A stretch of DNA of 64,000 bases from an uncultured bacterium (GCA_942492935.1 OW818654.1:3301113-3365112), one strand, 5' to 3'. Shown: positions 11,027 to 60,453, counted from the first letter of the stretch. Numbers and translations: made by a program. The notes: a model not told the origin generated them from the letters alone.

Positions 11027-12659
11027 CCTAAAAGTCTAAAATAGAACATGGATTAAGTCGTCTAAGTAATTGATTTTACAAGAATTAATTAACAAAAACG
11101 TAAACCCAAAAAGGTACTTAATCCATGCAAAACAAAAATACGAAAAAACCTGCAAATATCAAAACAAGTTTTGATTCAAAATCTTTGACCAACTTTAGTG
11201 GCATTAAAGTTATTTCTAAATTTATGCGTAAGATTGGCATAGAATCAATGTTCGATATGATTGATTTGAATTTGCATCACAATATTAAATTTACAAATTT
11301 CCAAATTTTATCAACAATAATTTTGGGAATATTTAGTGGTTTTAATCGTGTAAGCAAAATTGAATCATTTAGTCGCGACCCATTGATACAAAAATTGTTG
11401 TGCTTAGCTACAAATATTGATGCCGACACTATATTCAATAGAATCAAGCGTTTCGGAATGAATGAAAACAATCAAATCATGAACATAAATGGAAAATTAT
11501 CGTCAAAAGTTCATGATTTATTGAAGACAAACAGGGATATATTAGATTTAGATTCAACCGTTCATACACTTTATGGTCATCAAGAAGGTGTTGCCAAAGG
11601 ATTTAATTCAAGCAAAAAAGGAGCAAAAAGTTATCATCCAATTATGTGTTTCTTAAACAGCACTAAGGAATGTTTGTTGAGTTGGCTTCGTCCCGGCGAT
11701 ACTTATACAGCCAATAATTCGCACGGATTTATTGAGCAGGCATTTGGATTGCTCCCTTCCGGCATACAAGAATTATTAGTACGAGCCGACAGTGGATTTT
11801 TCAACGGTATACTATTGCAAGTACTTGAATCACGTAAAAATACGCTATATTTAATCAAAGTAAAATTGAAAAACTTGAACAGTCTCTTATCAAGTCAGGA
11901 TTGGGAAAGCATTCCCTTAATGCCAAATTGGCAAATGACAGAATTTATGTACAAGTGTGCCGACTGGGAAAAAGCAAGAAAGTTTGTTGCATTACGCAAG
12001 AAAGTGCTGGTTCATACTGAAGATGGATTATTTAAAACCGATTACTATTATGACTATTTTTGTTATGTAACTAATATATATGACAGTCCCTTAGAGATTC
12101 ATCGTTTGTATGGTGACAGAGGCGAGAGTGAAAATTGGATTGAACAAGTAAAACGACAAATGTTTGCCGGAAGCATGATAACGCAAGATTTTTGGGCGAA
12201 TGAAACATTATGGCAAATGAGTGTCTTGGCATACAATTTAAGTTTATGGATGCGAAAATTGAGCGATGAAAAATCTTGGCGTGAAGAGCCAAACACTTTT
12301 CGTGCATGGTTTGTGCAGGTGGCTGGCAAGATTGTAATTAATGGACGAAACCTTTGGTTAAAAATGTACGAAGCATATCATTATAAAGACAGGTGGTTGA
12401 AAATTGAAAAAGCGGTTGATAATTTGGTTTTTGCATAAAAAAACAAATTACAAACAAAAATCAGATGCAAATTTTGTTGTAGGAAAATCCGAAAGGGAAA
12501 TCTATGAACTAAACGTGCTTAAATATTAGAAATCATGAAATTTCAACAGTAAAATCTCCAGCAAAACTTGAAATTTCACCCCAATGCTAAAAAATTCCAA
12601 TTTTGATTAGCATAAAATGCTGTATTCTAAATTTATTTATCGTACTTTAGATTTTTAGG
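11027..12659 (+). mobile_element. IS1380-family insertion sequence (1633 bp)
   Basis: TIRs CCTAAAAGTCTAAAAT (11027-11042) and ACTTTAGATTTTTAGG (12644-12659), 14/16 match, CC ends; 5-bp target duplication TATAA (11022-11026 and 12660-12664); single transposase ORF. Confidence 0.92.
11125..12438 (+). CDS. IS1380-family DDE transposase
   Basis: LDLDST, YHP, VRADSGF, YxxRGESEN catalytic motifs; 437 aa. Confidence 0.92.
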   Translation: MQNKNTKKPANIKTSFDSKSLTNFSGIKVISKFMRKIGIESMFDMIDLNLHHNIKFTNFQILSTIILGIFSGFNRVSKIESFSRDPLIQKLLCLATNIDADTIFNRIKRFGMNENNQIMNINGKLSSKVHDLLKTNRDILDLDSTVHTLYGHQEGVAKGFNSSKKGAKSYHPIMCFLNSTKECLLSWLRPGDTYTANNSHGFIEQAFGLLPSGIQELLVRADSGFFNGILLQVLESRKNTLYLIKVKLKNLNSLLSSQDWESIPLMPNWQMTEFMYKCADWEKARKFVALRKKVLVHTEDGLFKTDYYYDYFCYVTNIYDSPLEIHRLYGDRGESENWIEQVKRQMFAGSMITQDFWANETLWQMSVLAYNLSLWMRKLSDEKSWREEPNTFRAWFVQVAGKIVINGRNLWLKMYEAYHYKDRWLKIEKAVDNLVFA

Positions 12660-12682: not shown

Positions 12683-14053
12683 TTATCCTTTTTCTATCTC
12701 TTCTTCTACTTTTCTTTTTGCTTCTTCTAATAGGTCTTTGCTTTCTTTTCTAAGTTTATGGCTTTCTTTAAGTTTATTTACTATGATATTTTGTAAATCA
12801 ATAGATATAAATGGAATAATGAATTTATCAATATCTTTGGGGTATAATTCAACTTGAGCAGAACCTGCACATAATTTTTCGGTTTGAAGTTTTCCTATTA
12901 ATGAATTCATTACAAAACCAACATAGTAAGGATTTTCATCTATAATTCTTAAAATATTTACATGGTTGCTTGCCATTGCTTTTTCATTAGATGAATATAC
13001 TTGTGTTCTACCTATATTTGCTCCAGTAGTGTAAATCAAAATATCGCCTTCAAAAACACGAGCTTTTTTCTGTTTTTCCCAGAAATTCATATCTGTTTTC
13101 TCAAAATTATCATAATCTAATGTATTATCAAGAATGTGTTTACTATTAATCACATTTAACAATCCATCTTTGTTATAAATTGGCTGTAATCCACGATTAT
13201 TATAAGTTTTAATATTTTCAATTGTTTTGATATGTTTCGCATTTTTACTGATTATTTGCACCATCTCCGCATATTTGGGCTGGAAATATTCGCTGTCGTA
13301 TCTTTTTGCATTATCAATTTCTTTTTTAGTAGTAGAAAACCAAAGAGAGTGTTTAACTTCATAATTCAAAAGACCAAGTTCTTCTAAAAGCATTACTTCT
13401 GCTTCTTTGTAAAGTTGTTTAGATTGAGATTGTTTTTGTTTAGAAGTTAAAATTATTTTTTCAATATCTAATTGTATTGATTTCTCCAAAATAGGTACCG
13501 CAATAGTTCTTATTCTAGACATAGCGACAGTAGGTTGCCCTGATAGTGTTTTTTCTCTATCAAGTATTGTTTGTCCAATTTTGGAATTTAAAAAAGTGGA
13601 TAAATAGAAGGAATTTATTAAATTTGTTGTATTTCTTATAAGACAAATATTTGGACCAAGCTGATAACTATTATCCAAAATAGTTAGACATCTTCTATAT
13701 TCTCCAGTATAAGATAAAACAACATCCCCATAATATAACTTTGATCGAGTTAAAAATTCATTTGCGATTTTTCTGTCAATTTTTAACGCCCCTTCATCTA
13801 CCAAATTTTCATTTTGTATATTTAAACTTGTAAGTGCAATATAAAAATCATCAGATTCAATATTTTGTTTCGTAAAATATTTAGTATATTCAAAACCAGC
13901 TAATTTTGTAACATCAAACTCATTACCAATTCTAGAAAATTTGCCGCTTTCAATTTTTGAAATTAATTTTAAAATAAAGGGTCTAAAATACTCAGCATCA
14001 ATTCTGTTAGCTTCGAGTATATCTTTATATTTTATATGTGATATTTGTGGCAT
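12683..14053 (-). CDS. restriction-modification specificity (S) subunit, two TRDs
   Basis: Two similar halves opening RIDAEYF / RYDSEYF, each followed by GD(V/I)L motifs and coiled-coil spacers; ATG at 14053 (track TTG at 14062). Confidence 0.85.
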   Translation of the reverse strand: MPQISHIKYKDILEANRIDAEYFRPFILKLISKIESGKFSRIGNEFDVTKLAGFEYTKYFTKQNIESDDFYIALTSLNIQNENLVDEGALKIDRKIANEFLTRSKLYYGDVVLSYTGEYRRCLTILDNSYQLGPNICLIRNTTNLINSFYLSTFLNSKIGQTILDREKTLSGQPTVAMSRIRTIAVPILEKSIQLDIEKIILTSKQKQSQSKQLYKEAEVMLLEELGLLNYEVKHSLWFSTTKKEIDNAKRYDSEYFQPKYAEMVQIISKNAKHIKTIENIKTYNNRGLQPIYNKDGLLNVINSKHILDNTLDYDNFEKTDMNFWEKQKKARVFEGDILIYTTGANIGRTQVYSSNEKAMASNHVNILRIIDENPYYVGFVMNSLIGKLQTEKLCAGSAQVELYPKDIDKFIIPFISIDLQNIIVNKLKESHKLRKESKDLLEEAKRKVEEEIEKG

Positions 14054-14058
14054 GGGTT

Positions 14059-15036
14059 TCAATTTCCTAATTTATTAAATTCTTTTTTCCAATCATCCAT
14101 TTTCATAGGAATTTTATTTTCTGCTTTCTCCTGAGCAATTAAACAAATGTGTATAGCTTCTTCATTTATTTTATTCTTATCTAAAACGGAAAGATAATCA
14201 TATATTCCTTTTTTTACCAAACCATTTTCTTTCTTCAATTCAATTACGCTTTTACCAAACAATTTCTTGTATATTATATTGGATGTTCTAGCTAAGTCTA
14301 TTCCATCAACTCTAAAATCTATACTAGTTACATATATATCAATAATTTTTTTCATTGGTTTGTCTCCTGAATTAATTATATTTTTAATCCTAAATGTAAG
14401 TTCGTCAAAATAGCTACTACTAAAATATAATTTATTCTTATTTTCAATTTCTTGATTTATTAAAATTCTTTCAATTATAGGATATAAAATTTTATATGAA
14501 CATTCTACCAATTTCAAAAAATTTTGATTTTCAATATCAAAACTACCGTGAACAAGATTACATCTAATTTGATAAATGATTTCTAAAGTTTGTTCGTAAA
14601 ACTTTTCCTTATTTTCTTCTAAAATTTGGAATTTATTATGAACTGTTGAAAAGTAAGTAGGTTCTTTCTCTTCTCTTTTATTCACATATTCTGAAATTAA
14701 ATCAGTTTTATTACCTTTTTCATCTTTTATTTTAAAATTAACAGATTCAGTAGATCCATCACTTTTTTCTTTTTTCAAATCAAAGTTTTCTAAACATAAA
14801 ATTAAATCGTTTATTGCATTTTGAAATTCAAAATCTATTTCTGAATTTAGATTTAATAATCTTAAAAATTCAGTTTTTAATTGTCCACTTTTTTTGTATT
14901 CATTTATAGCATTTCTGTCTTTACGTAATGATGGTTTATCTTTTTTATACCAATTATTAAAAGCCATCCAAAGTTTTAAAAATGGTGTAATATATTCAAT
15001 TTCTGCATTATCAAATAATTTTTTGTACTGTGCCAT
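14059..15036 (-). CDS. HEPN-domain protein with an extra C-terminal domain
   Basis: FLKLWMAFNNWY helix and Rx4H motif IRCNLVHG; about 130 aa C-terminal extension. Confidence 0.65.
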   Translation of the reverse strand: MAQYKKLFDNAEIEYITPFLKLWMAFNNWYKKDKPSLRKDRNAINEYKKSGQLKTEFLRLLNLNSEIDFEFQNAINDLILCLENFDLKKEKSDGSTESVNFKIKDEKGNKTDLISEYVNKREEKEPTYFSTVHNKFQILEENKEKFYEQTLEIIYQIRCNLVHGSFDIENQNFLKLVECSYKILYPIIERILINQEIENKNKLYFSSSYFDELTFRIKNIINSGDKPMKKIIDIYVTSIDFRVDGIDLARTSNIIYKKLFGKSVIELKKENGLVKKGIYDYLSVLDKNKINEEAIHICLIAQEKAENKIPMKMDDWKKEFNKLGN

Positions 15037-15122
15037 GTAAAAACCTATTAATTATACTTTCCAAAAAATTTAAATTCTGTTATTTTGCCCAAGTTACAAT
15101 TTGGTTTGTTATAGTTTTCAAA

Positions 15123-16094
15123 TTACTTCTTTGCTATAGTTTTCAAACTTTCCAAATACTCTTTTTCTACTGGAGAAAGTGTTTTTACCTGATATTTTTT
15201 ATATTCTATTTCGGCTTTTTCCATTGCTTGCTCGTGACTAATTTTTCCAGCATTTTGCAAAGTACCTTTCCCATAATTTGCAGTAAATTTATCAAGTTCA
15301 TTTATCCAATCTTGCATTTTCATTTCTTCATGCTCCATTGCTTTCAGTTCTGCAAGGTCAAAAAAAGCAGATACCAAACGATTGAGTCTTTGTAGTTCTT
15401 CCTGCTCAAGATAATTTTTGGCAATAGAAATATCTTTTTTAACTGGAATTTCGCCAGAAAAAGTTTTTAGTCCCATAAATTCTCTTTCAGCATCAGCGCG
15501 TTCATAAATCAGCTCTGCGGCGGTTTGTTTATTAACAGCATAGTGAAGTTTATTTTGCACAGTGGCAAAAAATAGTTTTGATTCAGCACTTTTTGGTTCA
15601 TAATCAATACTCGTTGCATACAAATCTAACACCTGACGATACAAAACCTTTTCACTGCTTCTAATGTCACGAATTCTCTCGAGTAATTCTTTCCAATAAT
15701 TACCTCCACCCGTGCCTTTAAGCCTTTCATCGTCCATGGTAAAGCCCTTGATGATGTATTCTTTGAGTCGAGCCGTTGCCCATTTACGAAACTCGGTGCC
15801 ACGTAGCGATTTTACTCTATAACCAACAGATATAATGACATCCAAATTGTAGTAATTTGTTGCTTTTTGTTGAAATTCGGAAATTCCGAATTTGTGCATT
15901 GTCTCGCTTTCAATAAGCTCTTTATCATTATAAATATTTTGAATATGTTCATTAATAGTAGATTTTGCTTTTCCAAAAAGTTCAGCCATTTGCTCTTGAG
16001 ATAGCCATACGGTTTCATCTTCCATTACAACATTAACAGAAACTTTTTCATCTGCTGTTTTGAAAATGATTATTTCGCTGTTTTGATTTTTCAT
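15123..16094 (-). CDS. rhuM: RhuM-family (Virulence_RhuM) protein
   Basis: ETVWLSQEQMAELF, YNLDVIISVGYRV, FRKWAT, ERIRDIRSSEK, FFATVQNKLHYAV, KNYL. Confidence 0.9.
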   Translation of the reverse strand: MKNQNSEIIIFKTADEKVSVNVVMEDETVWLSQEQMAELFGKAKSTINEHIQNIYNDKELIESETMHKFGISEFQQKATNYYNLDVIISVGYRVKSLRGTEFRKWATARLKEYIIKGFTMDDERLKGTGGGNYWKELLERIRDIRSSEKVLYRQVLDLYATSIDYEPKSAESKLFFATVQNKLHYAVNKQTAAELIYERADAEREFMGLKTFSGEIPVKKDISIAKNYLEQEELQRLNRLVSAFFDLAELKAMEHEEMKMQDWINELDKFTANYGKGTLQNAGKISHEQAMEKAEIEYKKYQVKTLSPVEKEYLESLKTIAKK

Positions 16095-16112
16095 ATTAAA
16101 AAAACTTATAAA

Positions 16113-18155
16113 TTAAACATTCCAAAAACTTAAATTCTGTTCTTTAGCCCAAATTTCAAATGCTTCTGCAATTTCTTTGAGGTCATGCTTTTGAATTAAG
16201 TGATTATGCTCGTCAAGAATTCTTTCACCATTTTCATTTGTCAAGTATACTTCTTCACCAGAATTATCTTTACCACTATTTTCGCTTACTGCCATAAAAA
16301 CTTCATAATCATCAACTTTAGGATTTATTTCATTATCCCATTTCTGAACAAAAAGCACTGAAGTTTTTGTTCCGGTATGTGGTTTAAAAGTATTTCCATC
16401 AAGCCCTACTACAGCTATAAGCCGTGCTTTTTCCATTACAAAACTTCTTATTTTCTCATCACTTGTATTGTTGAATCTACCTTGTGGCAAAACGATTGCC
16501 ATTCTACCGCCGGGTTTCAGAAAATCCAAATTTCTCTCGATAAACAATACATCACGTGAAACTTTATTTGCTTTTTTTCCTTTGCCATCAAATGCAACTT
16601 CGTAATTTGAAATAAGCCGTGAATCTTTAATATCACCAGCAAATGGTGGATTTGCCATAACAATATCAAACTTAAACTCCTTAGGATTTTTAGCATCAAC
16701 AGCCAAATCAAGCAGTCTTTGATAGCCGTCATTATAAGTTTTAACCCAAGCTCTATCCTTTTGCTTTTCTTCCCACCTGCTATAATCCAAAGTGTTAAGA
16801 TGCAAAACATTGGTTTTACCATCACCTGCAATCATATTTAAAGTACGTGCCACACGGACAGACTTTTCATCAAAATCAATTCCAAAAACTTTGTTCACAT
16901 AGTTTTTTTGTTCTATTGAAAGTTTTTGATTTGAGAAATTTGCAAACTGAGCTTTCCCTTGATTCACAAGCTTTTGCCAAACATTAAAAAGTGTATGAAC
17001 GGTAAAGCCACAACTTCCGCAGGCAGTATCAATCATTAATTCATCCGCATTAGGATTCATCATGTAAACACACATATCAATTACATTTCTTGGAGTGAAA
17101 TATTGCCCTTTTTCACCTTTAGCAGATTTGTTTACAAGGTACTCGAAAGCTTCATCAATAACTTGAAGATTTGAATTGAAAAGTTTTACGTTTTGTAAAA
17201 AACCAATGCAAATTTGCAAATGGTTTTCATCAGTGATTCTTAATGGTTCACCAATTTCAAAAATACCACCCCATTTTTCTTTAGCTTTTCTATAAAGTTG
17301 GTTTATAACGTCTTTTGTATGGTGAGCATCACCACGACTTCTAAATTCAAGTTTTCTATAATCATCGGTTTCAATTTTTTCAAGAATCTGCTTTTCAATA
17401 AGTTCTGGATTCTGCTTTTTGAAAATTTTAAATTGTGTTTCAATATTAACCCTATCTTCAGCACTTTCCATTTCATCATAAAGTTTTGTAAAAATCAATT
17501 TAAACACTTCCTCGAAAACATCAACACCTGCATTTGCAAGAACTTCATCTTCCATTTCTTGAATCAAATCTTTTAGTGATTTCCTTTCTTCAGTAAGTCT
17601 ATCTTTTAGCATTAATTCAAGATAAGTAAATCTTTCATTTTTAACATCATCAATCGTTTCTGTAGCTTTTGGAATATCAGAAAGTGGTTCGAAATAATTT
17701 GGGTCTAATCTTTCATAATAGTTTATCTCAACACCATTTGTCCAAACTGCAAGAGGTGAACCAGTTGCATTTGTATAACTTTTTAATTGGTCTTTACCAT
17801 CTTTAGCTTTATGCTTTTTTATTTCTAAAACGCAAAATACACTTGTTTTGTCTTTTTTATTAAGAATAACAATGTCAGCAAGCTTTTTTTCTCTACCAAA
17901 ATTAACAGTATATTCAACTTCAATTAAATCAAGTGTGTATCCATATTCATTTATGAGTTTGTCTATCATTAATTGTCTGACAATTTCTTCGGGCTTAACT
18001 TGAATATCTTTATTTCTTTTTAAACATTTCAGAAAAAGTTTGTTGCTTTTTTCAAAAATGTTATTTTCAATTCTATCTATACTATCAGGTGAGAAAATTG
18101 TAAGGTCGTATTTGCCATCAGATTTAACAAGTTGTGAAAGTTGAATATTTATCAT
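16113..18155 (-). CDS. restriction endonuclease (HsdR-N-like PD-(D/E)xK) fused to N6-adenine methyltransferase; Type IIG/IIB-like
   Basis: PEEIVRQ...ADIV...EIK...QLKSY...TNG nuclease; GQYFTPR, DTACGSCGF, NPPF methylase motifs; no helicase motor. Confidence 0.88.
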   Translation of the reverse strand: MINIQLSQLVKSDGKYDLTIFSPDSIDRIENNIFEKSNKLFLKCLKRNKDIQVKPEEIVRQLMIDKLINEYGYTLDLIEVEYTVNFGREKKLADIVILNKKDKTSVFCVLEIKKHKAKDGKDQLKSYTNATGSPLAVWTNGVEINYYERLDPNYFEPLSDIPKATETIDDVKNERFTYLELMLKDRLTEERKSLKDLIQEMEDEVLANAGVDVFEEVFKLIFTKLYDEMESAEDRVNIETQFKIFKKQNPELIEKQILEKIETDDYRKLEFRSRGDAHHTKDVINQLYRKAKEKWGGIFEIGEPLRITDENHLQICIGFLQNVKLFNSNLQVIDEAFEYLVNKSAKGEKGQYFTPRNVIDMCVYMMNPNADELMIDTACGSCGFTVHTLFNVWQKLVNQGKAQFANFSNQKLSIEQKNYVNKVFGIDFDEKSVRVARTLNMIAGDGKTNVLHLNTLDYSRWEEKQKDRAWVKTYNDGYQRLLDLAVDAKNPKEFKFDIVMANPPFAGDIKDSRLISNYEVAFDGKGKKANKVSRDVLFIERNLDFLKPGGRMAIVLPQGRFNNTSDEKIRSFVMEKARLIAVVGLDGNTFKPHTGTKTSVLFVQKWDNEINPKVDDYEVFMAVSENSGKDNSGEEVYLTNENGERILDEHNHLIQKHDLKEIAEAFEIWAKEQNLSFWNV

Positions 18156-18466
18156 ATTATTTCCAATAAACTTTTTGCTTAATTTTTCTTTCTCTTTACA
18201 AATTTACTAAATTTTTTTCTTCAACAAAAGAATAGTTTTATCACTTTACAAATTTATTTAAAAATTCAAATCTTAAGGTTTTGATGGTATTCAGTGTTTT
18301 GACTTATAACAAAGATTTAATCCCTCTGGAATTTCTTTAAATTGATAAGTATAAACAAATATTATGTCATTTCTTTCATTTCCATATTCAGAAACTCTGA
18401 AGAATGATAAATTTTGAAAGAAATGTTCAAAATGAATCAACATATAAAATTATATTCAAATTTGCA

Positions 18467-18919
18467 TTATTCAATATCTGCAATCAAAGGTATGATGTTA
18501 ATTAATTCTTTATACCGTTCAAAATCCTTCACGTTATGCGTGAATAAATCTTTAATATTGTTTTCTAACATAGTTGCAACAATATTTGCATCATGGATTT
18601 GTTTGCCGCCAACGTCAAAAACTTTGATTAGTTCAAATAAAATTTCTGTCGTTGCCTTTGATTCATTAAAAACAATAAAGTTATTAACGATATTGTTTAT
18701 ATCGTTAATAATTGCAAATTTGTTAATATTTGGCTCAATTGTTTTTTGTTTTGTCATAGTTGACAGATATTCTCTAACAATTTGTCTGGATATGCAGAAC
18801 TTATTAAACCGCAGCAAATCTTTTAATTTATTACTAACAAGTTCATTTAACGGATTATTCTTTATTTTAGCATATATTAGGATATTTGTGTCAATAAAAA
18901 CAATGTTGTATTTAATCAT
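18467..18919 (-). CDS. PIN-domain (VapC-like) toxin
   Basis: FIDTNILIY, QIVREY, IHDANIVATM, THNVKDF; ATG at 18919 overlaps the upstream stop. Confidence 0.88.
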   Translation of the reverse strand: MIKYNIVFIDTNILIYAKIKNNPLNELVSNKLKDLLRFNKFCISRQIVREYLSTMTKQKTIEPNINKFAIINDINNIVNNFIVFNESKATTEILFELIKVFDVGGKQIHDANIVATMLENNIKDLFTHNVKDFERYKELINIIPLIADIE

Positions 18920-19133
18920 ACATATCCTCACGTCTAAATGTATCATTAGGATTTACCAATTCAACATCGAAAGGTTCCATGATTTTCATGAAATTCTGCA
19001 ATTCAGATTGTGTATCATTGAACATTTCACTTTCGTTTATGATTATCTCAATCTTTTTACCGACAAAATGCTGAGGAAGTGTAAGAGTGAGATTTATACT
19101 TTCCAAATCAATGTAATTCCTATATGCAATCAT
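18912..19133 (-). CDS. putative antitoxin of the PIN toxin
   Basis: Small ORF with an acidic C-terminus ending RREDMYD, 8-bp overlap with the PIN start. Confidence 0.7.
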   Translation of the reverse strand: MIAYRNYIDLESINLTLTLPQHFVGKKIEIIINESEMFNDTQSELQNFMKIMEPFDVELVNPNDTFRREDMYD

Positions 19134-19219
19134 ATTATACACCATTATAACATTAAAATTAACTTTTATGATAAACGATTTTTAAAATCTAATATTTTAT
19201 TAATTTCTATGGATAATAC

Positions 19220-19290: not shown

Positions 19291-19566
19291 TTATGAGAAG
19301 GGAAATGACTTTTCTGGATGGGCTTTTAACCATAAAGCATCGGCACAAAAATCTATTTCGTTTGGAAAATCAAGAGTTCTTCCGGCATTTCCAATTTTTA
19401 CATTGTAAAAATTACTGTCATCAAGAAGACATTCGAATACATTTCCTTTTTTTATTAATGGCTTTAAATCAAAATCATAAATTGTATTATCTGCAAACTC
19501 CAATATTACAATTCGGTTATCAATCGGAACTACTTTTGAAATTATATGCCAATTACTTTTTTTCAT
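19291..19566 (-). CDS. DUF2442-family protein (putative antitoxin)
   Basis: V.P.DN....LEFAD....FDLKP...F..V.IG..G.TL.FPNEIDFCADAL. Confidence 0.85.
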   Translation of the reverse strand: MKKSNWHIISKVVPIDNRIVILEFADNTIYDFDLKPLIKKGNVFECLLDDSNFYNVKIGNAGRTLDFPNEIDFCADALWLKAHPEKSFPFS

Positions 19567-19570
19567 ACTA

Positions 19571-19831
19571 TTATTCTAAAGGACTTATTTTATTAATAGA
19601 TTTGTTAACTTTTGCATTTTCCCAATTATCAAGTAATTCTTTATGGTGTTCTGCAGTCCATTCAAAAACCAATGATTTTATTCTTTTTGGAAGCTCACCT
19701 TTTATTATTTCAATTGGCATTAATGAGATCACCGCTTCATTATCATTATATTTTGCATGGAAATGTGGTGGATTGTGTTCATCCCAATACATATATATCA
19801 TTATACCAAAAAAACTTGAAATTATAGGCAT
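19571..19831 (-). CDS. DUF4160-family protein (HicA-like putative toxin)
   Basis: MPIISSFFGIMIYMYWDEHNPPHFHAKY. Confidence 0.9.
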   Translation of the reverse strand: MPIISSFFGIMIYMYWDEHNPPHFHAKYNDNEAVISLMPIEIIKGELPKRIKSLVFEWTAEHHKELLDNWENAKVNKSINKISPLE

Positions 19832-23814: not shown

Positions 23815-26800
23815 ATGAAAAAAAACGGAATACTAAATTTCGTTATGGCATTTTTAATTCTGGCTGTAGCCGGATTTAATGCTAACGCACAGGATTTTTT
23901 CGGGCAATTAACACATCCATCAACAAGTGATGCAAAATTCCTAAAAATAATGCCTACTGGCAAGATGTATGTAGGTATTATGGGAGTTGGTATATTTTCA
24001 TCTACTGATGAAGGTGGTACATGGGTTTCAAATTCCAACGGTTTGACAAATAAATTCGTAACAGACCTTACTTTAAAAGGTTCTGATATGTTTATTTCAA
24101 CTTTGGGAGGCGGTATATTCAAAAGTACAAACTATGGTTCGGACTGGTTTGCAACTAACAACGGACTATCTGAATTAAGAGTAAATACAATTTTCACATA
24201 TCCAAACGGAACAATATTTGCAGGCACTTATGGTAATGGTGTTTTTCTATCTGTAGATAATGGATTGACTTGGAAAGAATCTAATAAGGGATTATTTTGG
24301 AAGGATATTACATCTTTTGCAATGTCTAAAGCTGGATTTCTAATTGCTGGTACTAATGGTGGAGGCATATATCGCACTCAAGATACTGGCAAAACTTGGA
24401 TAAGAAGTAGTTCAGGTTTAAAGAATATGTTTATTACTAAACTTAAATCCAACAATACAAATTCTTCAGTTTTTGCAGGAACAAATGGCAGAGGTGTATA
24501 TCAATCTGCAAATGATGGTATATCCTGGGCAGAGTTGGATACTACTTTTTTCTATTCTCATTCACCAGATACTGTTCCTTTACCTGATTTAAATGTTGCA
24601 TCTATCGCATTTAACAGTAAAAATGAACTTGTATTTAGCAGTCGTTATGGCGGTATTTTCTTTTGGGATAATGATACATATTATTCGTTTAGAGCATCGG
24701 ACTTTATGGGAAATCCTGCTGTAGCAATGGATAGACATTCAAATGGTACACTTTATGGGACTTATCCTTCAAATACAATAATGTATTCAACAAATAATGG
24801 TGAAATATGGAAGGAAAAAAATGGTCCTGTTGTAGTTTGGAAAAATCCTAAAATATTTGCTGCGAAACAGAGTACTTTATTTTTATTTGATTCTACTGGT
24901 GCAATATTTCGTTCATTAGACTCTGGAAAAACTTGGTCTTCAGTAAAAAATTCTACTAAAAGAATTAATCAAATGTGTCTTGACTCAATCGGCAATATTT
25001 TTGCTGCTGCTGATGATGGTTTATGGAAATCATCAACCGGAGGAGCAAGTTGGGATAAAGTATTTATGAGTAATGATACTACAATTATGCAAGTTCAAAC
25101 TGCTCCGAATGGCTATATTTGGACTTCAACAAGGTATTACAAAGTTATAGAAAATGGACCTCCTAATCCACCAACAATTATTGATATTAAAAGAATTTTT
25201 TACTCCTTAGATAATGGAATTAATTGGATTCAAGCTCCAAATCTTGTTATTTACAAAGATGACCCCGCTCCTAAAGTTCTTGGAATTAATAAAAATGGAG
25301 ATGTTTATGTTTCTCATGGGGATAAGTTCTGGCGGTCAAAAAATAACGGAGAATTTTGGACATTGTCGGCAAAAGCAACTTCAAATGAAATTACTGGTTT
25401 AGGTTTTACTTCATCTGGTGCAATTTTTGTAACTTGTACAGAAGGTGTGTTTAGGTCAACAAATCTTGGAAATACTTTCGATTCAATTCCAATTAAATCA
25501 TTCAATGCAAATAAAATCAATATCACAAAGAATGATGAAATTTACGTTCATTTTTCATATAATTTTATTGGCTCAAAAGAAGCATGGGCAGTAATGCGTT
25601 CTACTGATTTTGGAAATAAATGGCAAATGTTGAATAATTCATATAATGCCGAATTGGCTCAAGAAATATCTTCAAGTCCTGATGGTGATGTTTATGTTTC
25701 ACTCCAATCTGGTTCTTTGATGAAAAGAGTTAATCCAACTACTATTGCTGCACCTACCTTAGTAGATGTTCAAAAAGACCAAAAGAATGTAGTATTAAAT
25801 CCAACTTTCAAATGGCAATCTGTTTCAAAAGCTGAGCTTTACCAAATTGAAGTTTCTGAATATGATGATTTTGCTTATTCTTGGGAAACAATGACCCAGG
25901 CAGGAACTGAACATACTATCCAAAGAAATCTAATGTATAATACTAAGTATTATTGGAGAGTTAGAGGAAAATATCATGCATCAAACGGTGCTTGGTCCGA
26001 AACAAGAGCATTTACAACTATGCTTGAAGCACCATTCCTAAAATCTCCTGCTGATGATGCTATTGGCGTTCCTGTAAATGCAAAACTTGTTTGGTTTAAA
26101 ACAAATGGAGCTACCAAATATGATATACAAGTAGCTAAAGATTCTTCTTTTGCTTCGCCAGTATTTGTTAGTAATGGATTTGCTGATTCAACAATTATTA
26201 CAACACAATTAGAAGGTCTCACAAATTACTATTGGAGAGTAAAAGCTAAAAGTGATGACGCAGAAAGTTATTGGTCTGAAATTTGGTCATTCAAAACAGT
26301 TCTTGGTCCTCCAATTTTGATTGCTCCTTTAGATAGTGCTGTAGATTTAGATATTAATATAACCTTTAGTTGGCATCCAGCAAAGATGGCAAAACTTTAT
26401 TTAATACAATTTTCTGAATTTAATGATTTTGTAATAAATAATGAATATGTAGTAACTGATACTACATACAATTCTTCTGATTTTAATTACTTCAAATCTT
26501 ACTTCTGGAGAGTAAGGTCAACAAATGATGAAGGTGCGAGTGATTGGTCAGAAGTTCGTACTTTCACTACTGGTTTTGAACCACCATTGTTAATTACACC
26601 AGCAAATAATGCAACAAATATTGAAATAAATACAAAATATGTTTGGCAAAAACTAACAATAGCAGATAATTATCAAATTCAAGTTTCAAAAGATGAAAAT
26701 TTTGCTGATATGTTGCTTGATGAAAATACACAGAATGTGGACACACATAATGGAATTACACTTGATAATTATGAATATTATTGGTGGAGAATAAGAGCTA

Positions 26801-27699
26801 AAACTTCTTCAAATACAGGAGTATGGGCTAAAGCGAATAAATTTAAAACCATTGTTGGTGTAATTAGTTTACGAATTCCTGAAAACAATGCTTTAAATCA
26901 ACCGATTGACCTTGATTTTACTTGGTTTAATACCAAAGGTGCTGTTAAATATCACTTACAAGTAGCAAATGATTCGAAATTTGAAGATTTGATTTTCTCT
27001 CAGGATACCTTATCTGATATAAGTATGAATTTGAATATACTTCTACCTGGTAAAACTTACCATTGGAGAGTAAGAGCCAAAAGTAATGAAGGTTTTGGTG
27101 CTTGGTCAGAAGTAAGAACATTTACAACAGGAGCAAACATTGTAGTTCTTAAAGCACCTTTAAACAATATAACTATTGATAAAAAATCTGTAACTTTTGA
27201 ATGGGGAGCTATTCCAAATGCAACATTATATCATTTGGTTGTATCAGAGAATTCTGATTTAAGTAATCCAGTTTTGGATAAAAATGATATAGATTTGTTG
27301 TATTATACTTACAATGATTTAGAATGGGATAAAACATATTATTGGCACGTAAAAGGAATTATAACAGGTGAAGAAACGCAATGGTCTCAAACTTGGTCAT
27401 TCATTGCAAAAGAAGGCGGTTCGGTGTTTGATAGCAAGTTAATTTCTGATATGACAATTTCACCTAATCCAGCTATTGAATATTTGAATACAACATTTAA
27501 TTTGACAGAAAGTTCTAATGTTACATTGAAAATTACAGATATTAATGGCAGAGATTTGGTTGTATTGCCTCTCGGATTTATCAATTCAGGAATGAATAAA
27601 TATGAGCTTGATGTGAGAAATTTAAGCTCTGGTACTTTTTTCGTTCAGTTGGTAACTTCGCAAGGCATTGAAATTAAAGAAATTAAAATTGTTAAGTAA
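23815..27699 (+). CDS. T9SS-sorted surface protein: BNR/Asp-box beta-propellers + 6 FnIII-like repeats + CTD
   Basis: Many SxDxGxTW Asp-boxes; six Y(Y/F/W/H)W(R/H)(V/I) repeats; C-terminal ISPNPA...LSSGTFFVQL. Confidence 0.85.
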   Translation: MKKNGILNFVMAFLILAVAGFNANAQDFFGQLTHPSTSDAKFLKIMPTGKMYVGIMGVGIFSSTDEGGTWVSNSNGLTNKFVTDLTLKGSDMFISTLGGGIFKSTNYGSDWFATNNGLSELRVNTIFTYPNGTIFAGTYGNGVFLSVDNGLTWKESNKGLFWKDITSFAMSKAGFLIAGTNGGGIYRTQDTGKTWIRSSSGLKNMFITKLKSNNTNSSVFAGTNGRGVYQSANDGISWAELDTTFFYSHSPDTVPLPDLNVASIAFNSKNELVFSSRYGGIFFWDNDTYYSFRASDFMGNPAVAMDRHSNGTLYGTYPSNTIMYSTNNGEIWKEKNGPVVVWKNPKIFAAKQSTLFLFDSTGAIFRSLDSGKTWSSVKNSTKRINQMCLDSIGNIFAAADDGLWKSSTGGASWDKVFMSNDTTIMQVQTAPNGYIWTSTRYYKVIENGPPNPPTIIDIKRIFYSLDNGINWIQAPNLVIYKDDPAPKVLGINKNGDVYVSHGDKFWRSKNNGEFWTLSAKATSNEITGLGFTSSGAIFVTCTEGVFRSTNLGNTFDSIPIKSFNANKINITKNDEIYVHFSYNFIGSKEAWAVMRSTDFGNKWQMLNNSYNAELAQEISSSPDGDVYVSLQSGSLMKRVNPTTIAAPTLVDVQKDQKNVVLNPTFKWQSVSKAELYQIEVSEYDDFAYSWETMTQAGTEHTIQRNLMYNTKYYWRVRGKYHASNGAWSETRAFTTMLEAPFLKSPADDAIGVPVNAKLVWFKTNGATKYDIQVAKDSSFASPVFVSNGFADSTIITTQLEGLTNYYWRVKAKSDDAESYWSEIWSFKTVLGPPILIAPLDSAVDLDINITFSWHPAKMAKLYLIQFSEFNDFVINNEYVVTDTTYNSSDFNYFKSYFWRVRSTNDEGASDWSEVRTFTTGFEPPLLITPANNATNIEINTKYVWQKLTIADNYQIQVSKDENFADMLLDENTQNVDTHNGITLDNYEYYWWRIRAKTSSNTGVWAKANKFKTIVGVISLRIPENNALNQPIDLDFTWFNTKGAVKYHLQVANDSKFEDLIFSQDTLSDISMNLNILLPGKTYHWRVRAKSNEGFGAWSEVRTFTTGANIVVLKAPLNNITIDKKSVTFEWGAIPNATLYHLVVSENSDLSNPVLDKNDIDLLYYTYNDLEWDKTYYWHVKGIITGEETQWSQTWSFIAKEGGSVFDSKLISDMTISPNPAIEYLNTTFNLTESSNVTLKITDINGRDLVVLPLGFINSGMNKYELDVRNLSSGTFFVQLVTSQGIEIKEIKIVK

Positions 27700-57309: not shown

Positions 57310-60129
57310 TTATTTGTACAAATACAACATTGAATAAATAATGAATACTACAACGCATAAACCAGTTGTCAATGCAGCCCAACCAAAAACTTTTACTAAT
57401 CTTTCATAAGATTTTGATGGAGGAGGTACAATCAATTTTTCTAATTTGCCACTTTCAACTAATTTTTGATATTCAACAGGTCTATCGTGTTTAAATTCTT
57501 CTAAAGAATAACTACCAGTGAATACTACTGTATCCATAGGGAATTTTTCAGGTCTAAAATGAGTATTAAAGAAATGTACAGTAAAGATAAAGCCAGCAGC
57601 AAGTAATGCTTCATCACTGTGAATAATAGTAGCGATATTCAAAAATTCACCTGGAATAATTTTGGTAAAGAATGATGGGAACCATAATGAAAATCCAGTT
57701 GAACCAATAATAAAAATACCCCAAAATACTGCAAAGTAGTCAAATTTTTCCCAGTATGTCCATCTACCATATTGCGGTTGAGGACCTTTCCCTATAAACC
57801 ATAAAATTGACGCTTTTGCATCTTGAGCATCTTTCAAATTTGGTACTAAAGAATCAGGACCAAACAACATATTCTTCCAAGAGCCAAACTCTTCTTTTTT
57901 TACTCTAAATAAATCAAAAATATGAACTATAAAAATTCCCATCAAAAATGCTGCAGCTATTCTGTGAAATATTCCAGCTCCTTCTGCTCCACCATAAATG
58001 ACAACGATTGTCTGTGCTATCTCAGTATATGAGAATTTCAATAACATTCCAGTAACCGCAAGTGTAAGGAAACTACAAATCATAATAATATGCAAAGCTC
58101 TGTTTAATGGAGTAAATCTCATAACACGTTTATCATTTGGATGATTTGCTTCAATCAATTTCATTGTTTTACGCATTTGAATTGAACGAGGTAACCAAAG
58201 CAATGTATGGAGCCAACTAATCAAAAATGTTCCAATTAACAATGAAGTCATACCCCAAAAAGCATAGAACAAAAATGGATACTTCTCAGGGTCGTGATGA
58301 GTGGCGTGTGTTAGATAACCTGCAAATCTTCTATTAGCATTTGGATGGCATTTTTGACAAGTTGCAACAACATTTTCACGAGAAAGGTGTGATTCTGGAT
58401 TATCAACTGGTAATATATCATGTGCACCATGGCAGTCATAACATTTAGCTGCCTTTTGAGAGCCAAGTTGCGAAACTTTTCCATGATAAGTGTCGAAGTA
58501 TGTTTTGGTAATTTTCTCATGACATTTGCCACAAGTCTTCATAATATCCATTCTGAAGTGATTATCACTTGCTCCTTTAATTGAATGGGCTGAGTGACAA
58601 TCTTTACAAGTAGGCAATCTTTCCTTTGAAGTAGAAACAAATTTCGAGTGAATTGATTTATCAAATTGCTTCTCAATACCGTAATGGCATTTACCGCAAG
58701 TGTGTGCGATATTATCTGGATTAGTACTTGAAGTTTTATCTTTATGATGTCTTTCACTATGTGCTGTATGGCAATCAGCACAAGTAGCTGTTACAGTTAA
58801 TCCGCTTTTAGTTAATCCCTTTCCATGAATACTTTCAGAATATTGACTAACGAGATTCTTAGGTGCATCTTTAATTCTCATTGCAATTTTTTTGCCATCC
58901 ATGTGGCAACTTGAACATAGCTTTGGTATATTAGATGGGAATATAGTGGATTCAGGATTCTTTTTTGCTAAAACTTCGTGTGAACCATGGCAGGTCTTAC
59001 AATCAGGTGCATCTTTATCCTTTAAAGCGTGAAGCTCACCGTGCATACTTTTGTCATAATTCTTCTTAACATTTTCATGACAAGAGCCACAATTAACTTT
59101 AGTTTGAATACTTTCGCATGGTCTTTTGCTTGAAGGCATCACATCAGTATGACATTGACTACAAGCTGTTTTTGAGTGAACAGAATGATTAATATTTCTT
59201 GTATCGACAAATAATGACCTGCCATCGCTACTTGCTTTTATATCTTGTCTTTGATGACATTTCAAACATTCATCATTTGCAAGTCCCATAGCATAATATA
59301 CTTTACGAATTTTGTGTGGTTGATGACAATCAACACAAGCAGGCAAAATGTGAGCTTCTTTTTCCCATTTCTGACCATTGATAACTTTTTGATGTACTTC
59401 TTCAATTCTTGCATGGCACTTTGTACATGTTTTTGCAATATTTCCTCTGGAAATTGATGAACGATTGTCGGTATGTGGAAGAATTAAATGTGCTGAGTGG
59501 CAAGAAGCACAAGTTGCAGTTACTACTAAACCTTTATGTAATAAACCATATCCGTGAATTGACTCAGTATAATTTTCTAATATATGTGTTTGTGGTATAT
59601 TTCTTTGCAATTGAACTGGAGAACCTTCCTGATGGCATCTTCCACATAAGTAAGGTATTTTTATTGGCGAAACAGGAGAATTAGGGTCGTTTACTTTTGT
59701 AATTTCGTGGCTTCCATGGCAACTCTGGCAACTTGGTGCTAATGGGTCGCCCTTTTTACTTGCTTGACCATGCAGCCCAATATCATAATTTTTTTGTGCT
59801 TCTTGATGACATTTACCGCACTTTGCTTTAGGTAAATCATCTTCGTGTGGAAGGTCGGCATCTTTTAAATCAACATGGCAATCAATACATGCTGCTCCAT
59901 AGTGGGTTGATGCTTTTAGTTTTTTTTCACTCACAAAGACTGATATTGTTTTTCCATTTTTTTTGCCTTTTAGTGATGTATCTTCGTGGCAAGCATAACA
60001 ATCACTATTATCGGGTTCCTTTTGTTGAGCAGCGATTGTAGTATTTAATATTATATAAGAAAACCCTGCAATAGCTAAAATAATTGTGGAATAAAATGCT
60101 ATCCGATTATTACCCTTAGCATTAATCAT
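57310..60129 (-). CDS. 19-heme c-type cytochrome fused to a membrane cytochrome b (CbcL/FdnI-like)
   Basis: 19 CxxCH counted; C-terminal TM helices with His (RALH, IFH, IIH, VH..TH) and RWTYWEKFDYFAVFWG; ATG at 60129 precedes the signal peptide (track start 60270). Confidence 0.88.
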   Translation of the reverse strand: MINAKGNNRIAFYSTIILAIAGFSYIILNTTIAAQQKEPDNSDCYACHEDTSLKGKKNGKTISVFVSEKKLKASTHYGAACIDCHVDLKDADLPHEDDLPKAKCGKCHQEAQKNYDIGLHGQASKKGDPLAPSCQSCHGSHEITKVNDPNSPVSPIKIPYLCGRCHQEGSPVQLQRNIPQTHILENYTESIHGYGLLHKGLVVTATCASCHSAHLILPHTDNRSSISRGNIAKTCTKCHARIEEVHQKVINGQKWEKEAHILPACVDCHQPHKIRKVYYAMGLANDECLKCHQRQDIKASSDGRSLFVDTRNINHSVHSKTACSQCHTDVMPSSKRPCESIQTKVNCGSCHENVKKNYDKSMHGELHALKDKDAPDCKTCHGSHEVLAKKNPESTIFPSNIPKLCSSCHMDGKKIAMRIKDAPKNLVSQYSESIHGKGLTKSGLTVTATCADCHTAHSERHHKDKTSSTNPDNIAHTCGKCHYGIEKQFDKSIHSKFVSTSKERLPTCKDCHSAHSIKGASDNHFRMDIMKTCGKCHEKITKTYFDTYHGKVSQLGSQKAAKCYDCHGAHDILPVDNPESHLSRENVVATCQKCHPNANRRFAGYLTHATHHDPEKYPFLFYAFWGMTSLLIGTFLISWLHTLLWLPRSIQMRKTMKLIEANHPNDKRVMRFTPLNRALHIIMICSFLTLAVTGMLLKFSYTEIAQTIVVIYGGAEGAGIFHRIAAAFLMGIFIVHIFDLFRVKKEEFGSWKNMLFGPDSLVPNLKDAQDAKASILWFIGKGPQPQYGRWTYWEKFDYFAVFWGIFIIGSTGFSLWFPSFFTKIIPGEFLNIATIIHSDEALLAAGFIFTVHFFNTHFRPEKFPMDTVVFTGSYSLEEFKHDRPVEYQKLVESGKLEKLIVPPPSKSYERLVKVFGWAALTTGLCVVVFIIYSMLYLYK

Positions 60130-60453
60130 AAATTCTTTGATTTTTAAATTCATCAGTTTTATTTTGTGAGAATTAAAATCAAATGACTTATTGATTTTTA
60201 GATAATCTAAAACATTTTGTAAATGGTTAAATATTTTCATCAAAAGCTCCATATTAAATACAACATTCAATCGTTTGAGTAATTCATAGTCAAAAAAAGA
60301 TTTAAAAATTAATCAAACATTTAAATACATTTCTTAACAATTATAAAATTAAGAAATTTTATAATTACAAACAATACTTTTTATAAAAATATTTTTTATT
60401 GCTATAAACTATAAATTATATGCTTGATACATCACATTATTAGAATAAATTTA

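Follow-up and report, generated by a model that had tools for sequence, protein, structure and literature searches.

The anticodon nuclease PrrC has its gene within a restriction-modification (R-M) operon of Type Ic, and in PrrC-EcoprrI, as with RloC, a toxin gene carrying the HEPN-type Rx4H motif lies between R-M genes and is proposed as a back-up when restriction fails. The embedding of HEPN toxins and of RhuM proteins in R-M operons was described in 2013, in a study in which PrrC-like genes were noted together with RhuM-like genes in R-M loci, RhuM was proposed to act there as a toxin, and ApeA was reported inside R-M operons of epsilonproteobacteria (PMC3710099). ApeA cleaves tRNA anticodon loops and acts by abortive infection (bioRxiv 10.64898/2026.01.26.701840). 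A further point of comparison is provided by the Type IIB enzymes BsaXI and BcgI, in which a fusion of nuclease and N6-adenine methylase (RM) works with a separate specificity subunit (S) with two target-recognition domains (TRDs), and no translocase is present; in contrast to the locus described here, inserted cargo is not mentioned for Type IIB operons in the literature cited. The present analysis concerns a stretch of 64,000 nucleotides from an uncultured bacterium (GCA_942492935.1, OW818654.1:3301113-3365112), hereafter the window, in which four open reading frames (ORFs), all on the minus strand, span positions 12683-18155 and encode an RM subunit, a RhuM protein, a protein of an unnamed family that we call X, and an S subunit (Table 1). 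Our reading of the locus as a whole, to which we assign a probability of about 0.5, is that of a Type IIB-like R-M enzyme with a cargo slot between its two genes, occupied by RhuM and by X, a latent RNase-like protein.

Table 1. Coordinates and gene content of the locus, of its surroundings and of related loci; positions in the window are counted from its first nucleotide (aa, amino acids; MAG, metagenome-assembled genome).
Feature	Sequence	Position	Strand	Description
RM subunit	window	16113..18155	-	680 aa; N-terminal PD-(D/E)XK nuclease and gamma-class N6-adenine methyltransferase, Type IIB-like; Pfam HSDR_N_2, N6_Mtase, Eco57I
RM nuclease domain	window	17670..17993	-	aa 55-162, with E81, D94, E111, K113
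RM methyltransferase domain	window	16128..17162	-	aa 332-676, NPPF at aa 502
rhuM	window	15123..16094	-	323 aa, full-length RhuM family
Gene X	window	14059..15036	-	325 aa; HEPN-like N-terminal and RhuM-C-like C-terminal domain
X N-terminal domain	window	14422..15036	-	aa 1-205; unnamed family, mostly free-standing proteins of ~190 aa
X Rx4H motif	window	14548..14565	-	R158-C-N-L-V-H163
X C-terminal domain	window	14068..14412	-	aa 209-323, homologous to C-terminal half of RhuM
S subunit	window	12683..14062	-	two TRDs, 459 aa counted from TTG; start at ATG 14053 or TTG 14062
Two exact TAAATTTGTAAAG copies	window	18194-18206 and 18244-18256	-	50 bp apart, 39-101 bp upstream of RM start codon
DDE_Tnp_1_4 transposase	window	11125-12438	+	PF13701, 177 bits; intact-looking
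PIN toxin and overlapping 77-aa upstream ORF	window	18467-19145	-	toxin-antitoxin-like pair, directly upstream of RM
DUF4160/DUF2442 pair	window	19291-19831	-	second toxin-antitoxin-like pair, upstream of RM
Por_Secre_tail protein	window	23815-27699	+	1294 aa
Multihaem cytochrome	window	57310-60270	-	986 aa
X locus	L001			RM-X-RhuM-S
X locus	L003			Endomicrobiaceae MAG; RM-X-S
X locus	L007			RM-X(DUF4357)-S
X locus	L009			RM-HEPN_LA2681-BroN-X-small ORF-S
X loci	L010, L013, L014			RM-X-S; L013 Rhodobacteraceae, L014 Gammaproteobacteria
X locus	L011			Bathymodiolus symbiont; RM-X-RhuM-like ORF
X locus	L012			Saccharibacteria MAG; RM-X
Distant X members	P0102, P0190			RM-X-S
Distant X member	P0114			RM-S-X
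Distant X member	P0131			RM-X
X locus, Streptococcus cuniculipharyngis	L108	6315-6998		RM-S-half S (one TRD)-X
X locus, Streptococcus cuniculipharyngis	L109	3935-4558		RM-S-half S (one TRD)-X
AAA_15/AAA_21 ATPase cargo	L027	6683-8542		~610 aa
Unannotated slot cargo	L068	3939-5006
Unannotated slot cargo	L088	3695-4435
Unannotated slot cargo	L061	7034-8434
Unannotated slot cargo	L084	6663-7481
171-aa cargo	L082	6762-7292		Rx6H-like RKLRNKIH
320-333-aa cargo family	L016	4344-5303		starts MNQ(E/D)EQFIGYLK
320-333-aa cargo family	L020	8995-10047		starts MNQ(E/D)EQFIGYLK
DUF4268 protein	L003	4997-5935		immediately upstream of RM
DUF4268 protein	L100	748-1704		immediately upstream of RM

The evidence favours RM and S being a complete, motor-less restriction enzyme of the BcgI/BsaXI-like, Type IIB-like kind, with predicted cleavage activity. 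Scores against Pfam were 88 bits for the nuclease domain (HSDR_N_2) and 129 bits for the methylase domain (N6_Mtase), and the closest relative of the RM protein in the PDB was the Type IIB protein RM.BsaXI (8w0p, E 2.8e-28). The homology extends over both domains, since the nuclease part (aa 40-126) aligned to BsaXI residues 30-121 (E 7e-6) and the methylase part (aa 330-609) aligned to the same protein. The catalytic residues of BsaXI, E73, D90, E105 and K107, are conserved across Type IIB enzymes (PMC11997821). Across 73 distinct homologues (56-88% identity), conservation of the residues E81, D94, E111 and K113 of the window protein was 98% or higher, and the NPPF motif was conserved in RM homologues as well. 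Regarding S, the PADLOC model Specificity_I (PDLC03095), a Type I-like model with two TRDs, covered aa 5-457, and several further PADLOC models matched the protein twice, at approximately aa 58-217 and 271-450. No HsdR-like gene was found among the six ORFs of at least 600 aa in the 64-kb window, and none recurred beside approximately 100 related RM-S pairs, whose large neighbours were DnaE, RpoB, RecG, GmrSD and similar proteins. Thus, the HsdR subunit with superfamily 2 translocase and nuclease domains that marks a Type I system was seen neither in the window nor as a recurrent neighbour of related pairs. The features found are those of Type IIB: a nuclease-methylase fusion with intact catalytic residues, a separate S that has two TRDs, and the absence of a translocase or ATPase subunit. 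An earlier note on this DNA, made from the sequence alone, had proposed a motor-less, BcgI-like system, and this proposal held. The RM protein differs from BsaXI in its length (680 versus 916 aa), and therefore has no room for the C-terminal stretch that holds the BsaXI paddle (cf. PMC11997821).

The PADLOC labels point elsewhere. In PADLOC, the RM protein scored best against MTase_I (PDLC03034, "Type I methyltransferase", 863 bits), so standard pipelines probably report an incomplete Type I system here, and such labels, which S also received, would be expected if the pair were an incomplete or orphan Type I methylase whose HsdR is encoded elsewhere or was lost, with inserted genes that have no link to restriction. 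The insertion sequence (IS) transposase located 244 bp beyond S could, in principle, have displaced a gene. Nevertheless, we consider this explanation highly improbable, as all four nuclease catalytic residues are conserved under selection, the domain that carries them shares homology with the nuclease of BsaXI, which is active, and the approximately 100 related loci, which have no IS, lack HsdR as well. The RM-S pairs labelled Type I by PADLOC models are probably complete Type IIB-like enzymes. Similarity to the MADS system was also considered, RM being homologous to MAD2 and S to MAD5; membership was rejected because the scores (305 bits versus a cut-off of 720 for MAD2, and 93 versus 400 for MAD5) were far below threshold and no other mad model was matched by the four proteins. 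The neighbouring genes are toxin-antitoxin-like pairs and an IS element.

The space between the RM and S genes serves in this enzyme family as a general insertion point for cargo of the abortive-infection type. A metagenome search with the RM protein yielded 80 loci (55-89% identity), 72 of them informative; RM abutted S in 9 of these, and cargo was present in the remaining 63. The most frequent cargo was an AAA_15/AAA_21 ATPase of approximately 610 aa (19 of the 72 loci), followed by Fic (7), Bro-N (5), RhuM (4) and X (4), and other loci carried AIPR, AAA_13, Schlafen/AlbA_2, DUF3800, DUF4145, DUF6119, RelA_SpoT or unannotated proteins.

Several observations were made on the cargo itself. The C-terminus of the commonest cargo, the ATPase found among loci L015-L047, looks TOPRIM/OLD-like by eye. 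Of six unannotated cargo proteins tested, four had no Pfam match, namely a 351-aa family found with Fic, a 235-aa membrane-looking protein found with Bro-N, another of 466 aa, and one of 261 aa with the sequence YRNSIVH, another Rx4H motif; a 171-aa protein with an Rx6H-like motif had no Pfam match, and a further family of 320-333 aa shares a characteristic beginning (Table 1). The string KIKFLEI, which opens many of the cargo ORFs when these are read from stop to stop, was considered as a conserved junction element and dismissed, upon inspection only, as an alternative frame of the conserved RM 3' end.

Linkage of X to this RM family is recurrent. Of 20 distinct contexts, 18 have X adjoining an HSDR_N_2-N6_Mtase gene, its S gene or both; they comprise the loci of close relatives, distant members and four loci from the RM-based survey, and the association holds for relatives at approximately 20-28% identity. 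Close relatives on a readable contig lie after the HSDR_N_2-N6_Mtase gene and before the S gene, and the gene orders recorded overall are RM-X-S, RM-S-X and RM-S-S'-X. The linked contexts include Endomicrobiaceae, Saccharibacteria, Rhodobacteraceae, Gammaproteobacteria, a Bathymodiolus symbiont and Streptococcus (Table 1), and the contig scan with X as query contributed 4 loci with narrow derived patterns. A lack of recurrent linkage to R-M genes was among the outcomes that, according to the earlier note, would refute its interpretation, and the linkage found here is recurrent. In Streptococcus cuniculipharyngis, the extra half-S gene suggests specificity shuffling.

These data bear on whether X is functionally tied to the enzyme, and part of them weighs against such a tie. 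X occurs in only 4 of the 72 RM loci, so the enzyme does not need it; the slot is shared with many generalist toxins, and linkage alone is therefore no proof of functional coupling; and two exceptions to the linkage exist, both in a clade of compact X relatives (155-170 aa). X and RhuM could accordingly be stand-alone toxins or abortive-infection genes that occupy a recombination-prone slot without any functional tie to the enzyme; cassettes would be exchanged through homology arms provided by the conserved 3' end of RM and 5' end of S. Such hitch-hiking would fit a slot whose recorded cargo comprises over 25 unrelated families, of which many are also known elsewhere (Fic, AIPR, AAA_15, DUF3800, RelA_SpoT), as well as the presence of X with and without RhuM in varying orders and that of its compact relatives outside this RM family. 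However, unlike generalist cargo, X keeps to one RM family across phyla in 18 of the 20 contexts, down to approximately 20-28% identity, and the linkage is maintained when X moves to a position after S, whereas pure hitch-hiking predicts a wider range of contexts. We therefore regard a complete lack of functional connection as unlikely.

In one of the two exceptional contexts (L098/L099), a compact X relative is flanked by a NOV_C protein and a DUF1156 methylase; in the other (L105-L107), the compact relative overlaps the end of a 560-aa protein of unknown kind, and an N6_N4 methylase is encoded close by. These two- and three-gene arrangements may be further uncharacterised defence modules.

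X belongs to a widespread family that current libraries do not cover. A homologue search with X returned 82 proteins, and a profile search of the family, with sequences clustered at 50% identity, reached 551 cluster representatives at E<=1e-3. For the first ~200 residues of X, neither Pfam (no match at E<=0.1) nor NCBIfam, PADLOC or PHROGs has a matching model, and a direct sequence search of the PDB with X gave no match. When a broad profile of the family (A3) was searched against a set of 5.8 billion proteins, the best 120 matches listed were all proteins of approximately 190 aa without a Pfam domain, named "hypothetical" or "uncharacterized protein", and among the matches listed there was no link to an annotated HEPN family. 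The N-terminal domain, of approximately 190 aa, makes up the whole protein in most members (182-217 aa in total); in other members it is followed either by DUF4357 (~290 aa) or, as in the window, by a RhuM-like tail (310-341 aa).

The N-terminal domain of X is quite probably a HEPN-type RNase, judging from its motif, the position of this motif and the direction of the weak matches that cover it. Among 80 relatives of 20-40% identity, Y155, R158 and H163 were the only invariant residues, and F19, W23, N27, W29, D40, K48 and G164 were nearly invariant; R158-x4-H163 was also invariant in 44 close relatives. X thus carries the Rx4H motif characteristic of HEPN proteins, within the stretch IRCNLVHG. 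HEPN domains have been described as carrying this motif where a long helix ends, with a loop and then another long helix after it and a variable insert before it (PMC3710099). AlphaFold models of full-length X (predicted local distance difference test score, pLDDT, 88) and of the N-terminal domain (pLDDT 86, predicted template-modelling score 0.84) both place R158-H163 at the C-terminal end of a predicted helix (residues 140-163), followed by a loop (164-170) and a further helix (171-204), which fits the published description. A beta-rich insert (88-138), absent in the compact relatives, precedes the motif helix. When profile A3 was searched against all PDB sequences, the top match, at a marginal E of 0.07, was the HEPN domain of the tRNA-cleaving Ec2ApeA (PDB 9hxb); the alignment spans the domain, pairing IYQIRCNLVHG, or IYQvRCnLfHG in the profile, with IYRTRNLIVHTG and also aligning the "LW" segment of helix 1. 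Likewise, sub-threshold matches were obtained to HEPN_RiboL-PSP (0.0024) and HEPN_Apea (0.041) for the compact relative P0161, and to HEPN_Swt1 (0.15) for the relative P0205. Indeed, every weak match that covers the X motif falls on a HEPN family. The resemblance to ApeA is limited to the domain: ApeA is a protein of approximately 590 aa that forms large oligomers and has a deoxydinucleotide ligand pocket, whereas X is much smaller and has other flanking domains.

Other comparisons count against a HEPN assignment. Foldseek searches with the full-length and N-terminal models against the PDB, and with the N-terminal model against BFVD, gave no match at E<=0.001, and the weaker matches included no HEPN protein, so a recognisable four-helix HEPN fold was not recovered. 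Profile-profile comparison with ApeA by hhalign aligned the motif region only, with probabilities of 47%, 20% and 1.4%, although the ApeA HEPN alignment, built from a 173-aa fragment, drew just four proteins and made these tests weak. Searches with two other profiles, A2 and A5, recovered neither ApeA nor any other HEPN protein. Moreover, the residue after R158 is Cys in the window protein and C, S or N in its relatives, a position at which a polar N, D or H is typical, albeit not obligatory, in HEPN domains (PMC3710099). Of the HEPN call in the earlier note, the invariant Rx4H, its modelled position and the marginal matches speak in favour, and the fold search and the hhalign probabilities, none above 47%, do not.

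These negative results would be expected if X were not an RNase at all, and instead an accessory protein or regulator, tuning for instance cleavage versus methylation, or a DNA-directed factor whose Arg and His serve in nucleic-acid binding or other chemistry. This alternative, which we hold to be improbable, has in its favour the absence of significant matches, structural or by profile, to any HEPN family, the tight specificity of X to one RM family, and the best weak Foldseek match of the full-length model, the DNA-binding protein DdrC (E 0.06-0.14). The alternative tail of the family, DUF4357, points in the same direction: it is otherwise fused to GmrSD, GIY-YIG and McrB-type enzymes (PMC4619093, PMC11090510), and is thus a companion of DNA nucleases and of Type IV restriction enzymes, which fits a DNA-directed role equally well. 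By contrast, the 9 cargo-free loci and the 4 with X, out of 72, show that X is not a core subunit, the helix-end Y-x2-R-x4-H-G is a HEPN signature, and all weak matches over the motif are to HEPN families.

A bridge from X to a known family was sought in Pfam matches to MauJ and rejected, because the MauJ domain (PF17419, aa 123-235) of P0205, a protein of 421 aa, is a separate N-terminal domain. The X-type motif of P0205 lies in its C-terminal region, and the protein links the little-known MauJ family to this motif.

The second half of X has a traceable origin. Residues 209-323 aligned by BLASTP to residues 133-270 of the neighbouring RhuM protein with 27% identity (E 2e-7), and on account of this alignment X can be described as a fusion of a HEPN-like domain with the RhuM C-terminal half. 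The Pfam RhuM model matched X below threshold (24.2 bits, aa 203-243), so X is not itself a RhuM member, and PADLOC PDC-S05 matches were located at aa 198-244. The earlier note had described the C-terminal domain as different from that of PrrC, which was correct, and had overlooked its homology to RhuM. From the alternation of tails in the family, we infer that they are exchangeable modules for sensing, nucleic-acid binding or docking.

The neighbouring 323-aa protein is a clear RhuM, with 349.8 bits against PF13310 (cut-off 33.7, E 1e-104) and 490 bits against the PADLOC model PDLC04843 over aa 1-322; PADLOC lists the family as the defence candidate PDC-S05. To our knowledge, RhuM has no known biochemical function. 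Its placement within an R-M operon is as published; the difference is that the C-terminal half of RhuM doubles here as the tail of another protein. The gene is missing from most X-bearing loci and is found without X in others, and gene order varies, so that rhuM and X look like independently stacked cargo. Since the two occupy the slot independently, RhuM can be ruled out as an obligatory adaptor for X, and the adaptor or regulator role that the earlier note had proposed for RhuM finds no support. In the Bathymodiolus symbiont locus, the N-terminal part of RhuM appears fused to a Fic/DOC-like region, a call made by eye from an HPFxxGNxR motif.

X is a probable RNase back-up of the PrrC type. 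In the mechanism we propose, the RM.S complex would methylate host DNA and cut unmodified incoming DNA without ATP. The N-terminal domain of X would be a metal-independent HEPN-type RNase with R158 and H163 at its active site, and its C-terminal domain a helical RhuM-C-like module that may serve in sensing, nucleic-acid binding or docking. X would remain latent and, once infection proceeds despite restriction, its cleavage of RNA would stop translation; the trigger could be inhibition of the RM complex, as in PrrC-EcoprrI. RhuM would be a second, separate and optional cargo rather than a required partner. The parallel with PrrC and RloC is drawn from gene features and has its limits: PrrC and RloC have an ABC-type ATPase domain at the N-terminus, fused to the nuclease domain, whereas no ATPase domain was found in X in library scans, in agreement with the earlier note; the protein has 325 aa and a RhuM-C-like tail, and PrrC-EcoprrI is hosted by a Type I system with HsdR, whereas the enzyme here is motor-less. 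A more specific version, in which proteins of the X family specifically guard Type IIB-like RM enzymes, as RNases without an ATPase that dock on or sense the (RM)2S complex through their exchangeable C-terminal modules and fire upon inhibition by phage, is put forward as a tentative idea with the odds against it. If true, docking to R-M enzymes or sensing would fall to the C-terminal half of RhuM, and RhuM would thereby gain its first mechanistic role.

The earlier note had suggested an undescribed module that guards R-M, and this is right insofar as the X family has neither a name nor a model; HEPN and RhuM genes in R-M operons are themselves published (PMC3710099). The new elements are the X family, the almost exclusive association of X with a single Type IIB-like RM family, its tail resembling RhuM-C, and a cargo slot of this size and variety. 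A widespread, unannotated family with a specific partner makes the idea of a toxin that guards restriction testable in a simpler, two-subunit and ATP-independent R-M system. The RM-S slot can be mined for new defence effectors, several cargo families being unannotated, and the shared RhuM-C module hints at a modular architecture of RhuM, which is very common in R-M loci.

To judge only by their spacing and common orientation, the four genes would form one operon. The RM/rhuM gap is 18 bp (16095-16112) and the rhuM/X gap 86 bp (15037-15122); X ends with TGA at 14061-14059, which leaves 5 bp before S if this starts at ATG 14053, and a start at TTG 14062 would overlap the X stop codon, as read from the junction sequence. 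ORFs and domain matches agree with the earlier note in the gene order (nuclease-methyltransferase fusion, rhuM, HEPN protein, S with two TRDs) and in the gaps of 18, 86 and 5 bp. A scan of the locus found no terminator-like sites between the four genes, and a promoter scan gave 32 sites versus 37.8 expected, which is uninformative in such AT-rich DNA. The two TAAATTTGTAAAG copies upstream of the RM gene are the only two in the whole window and may be candidate tandem promoters or an operator; each contains TAnnTTTG, which we take to resemble the -7 promoter element of the Bacteroidota type.

The R-M operon sits within a small mobile or defence island. The transposase lying 244 bp past the end of S forms one edge of it, and genes for AhpC/TSA and DsbD_N proteins are found on that side of the operon; on the other, the two toxin-antitoxin-like pairs lie upstream of the RM gene, together with a histidine kinase (Table 1). 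In two unrelated loci, a DUF4268 protein of approximately 315 aa is encoded immediately upstream of RM, a domain otherwise associated with GmrSD (PMC4619093). Farther away in the window, a protein with the Por_Secre_tail domain of type IX secretion system (T9SS) sorting and a multihaem cytochrome are encoded, and G+C content is approximately 29%; the T9SS-type protein, the cytochrome and the low G+C content point to a member of the Bacteroidota/Ignavibacteriota group.

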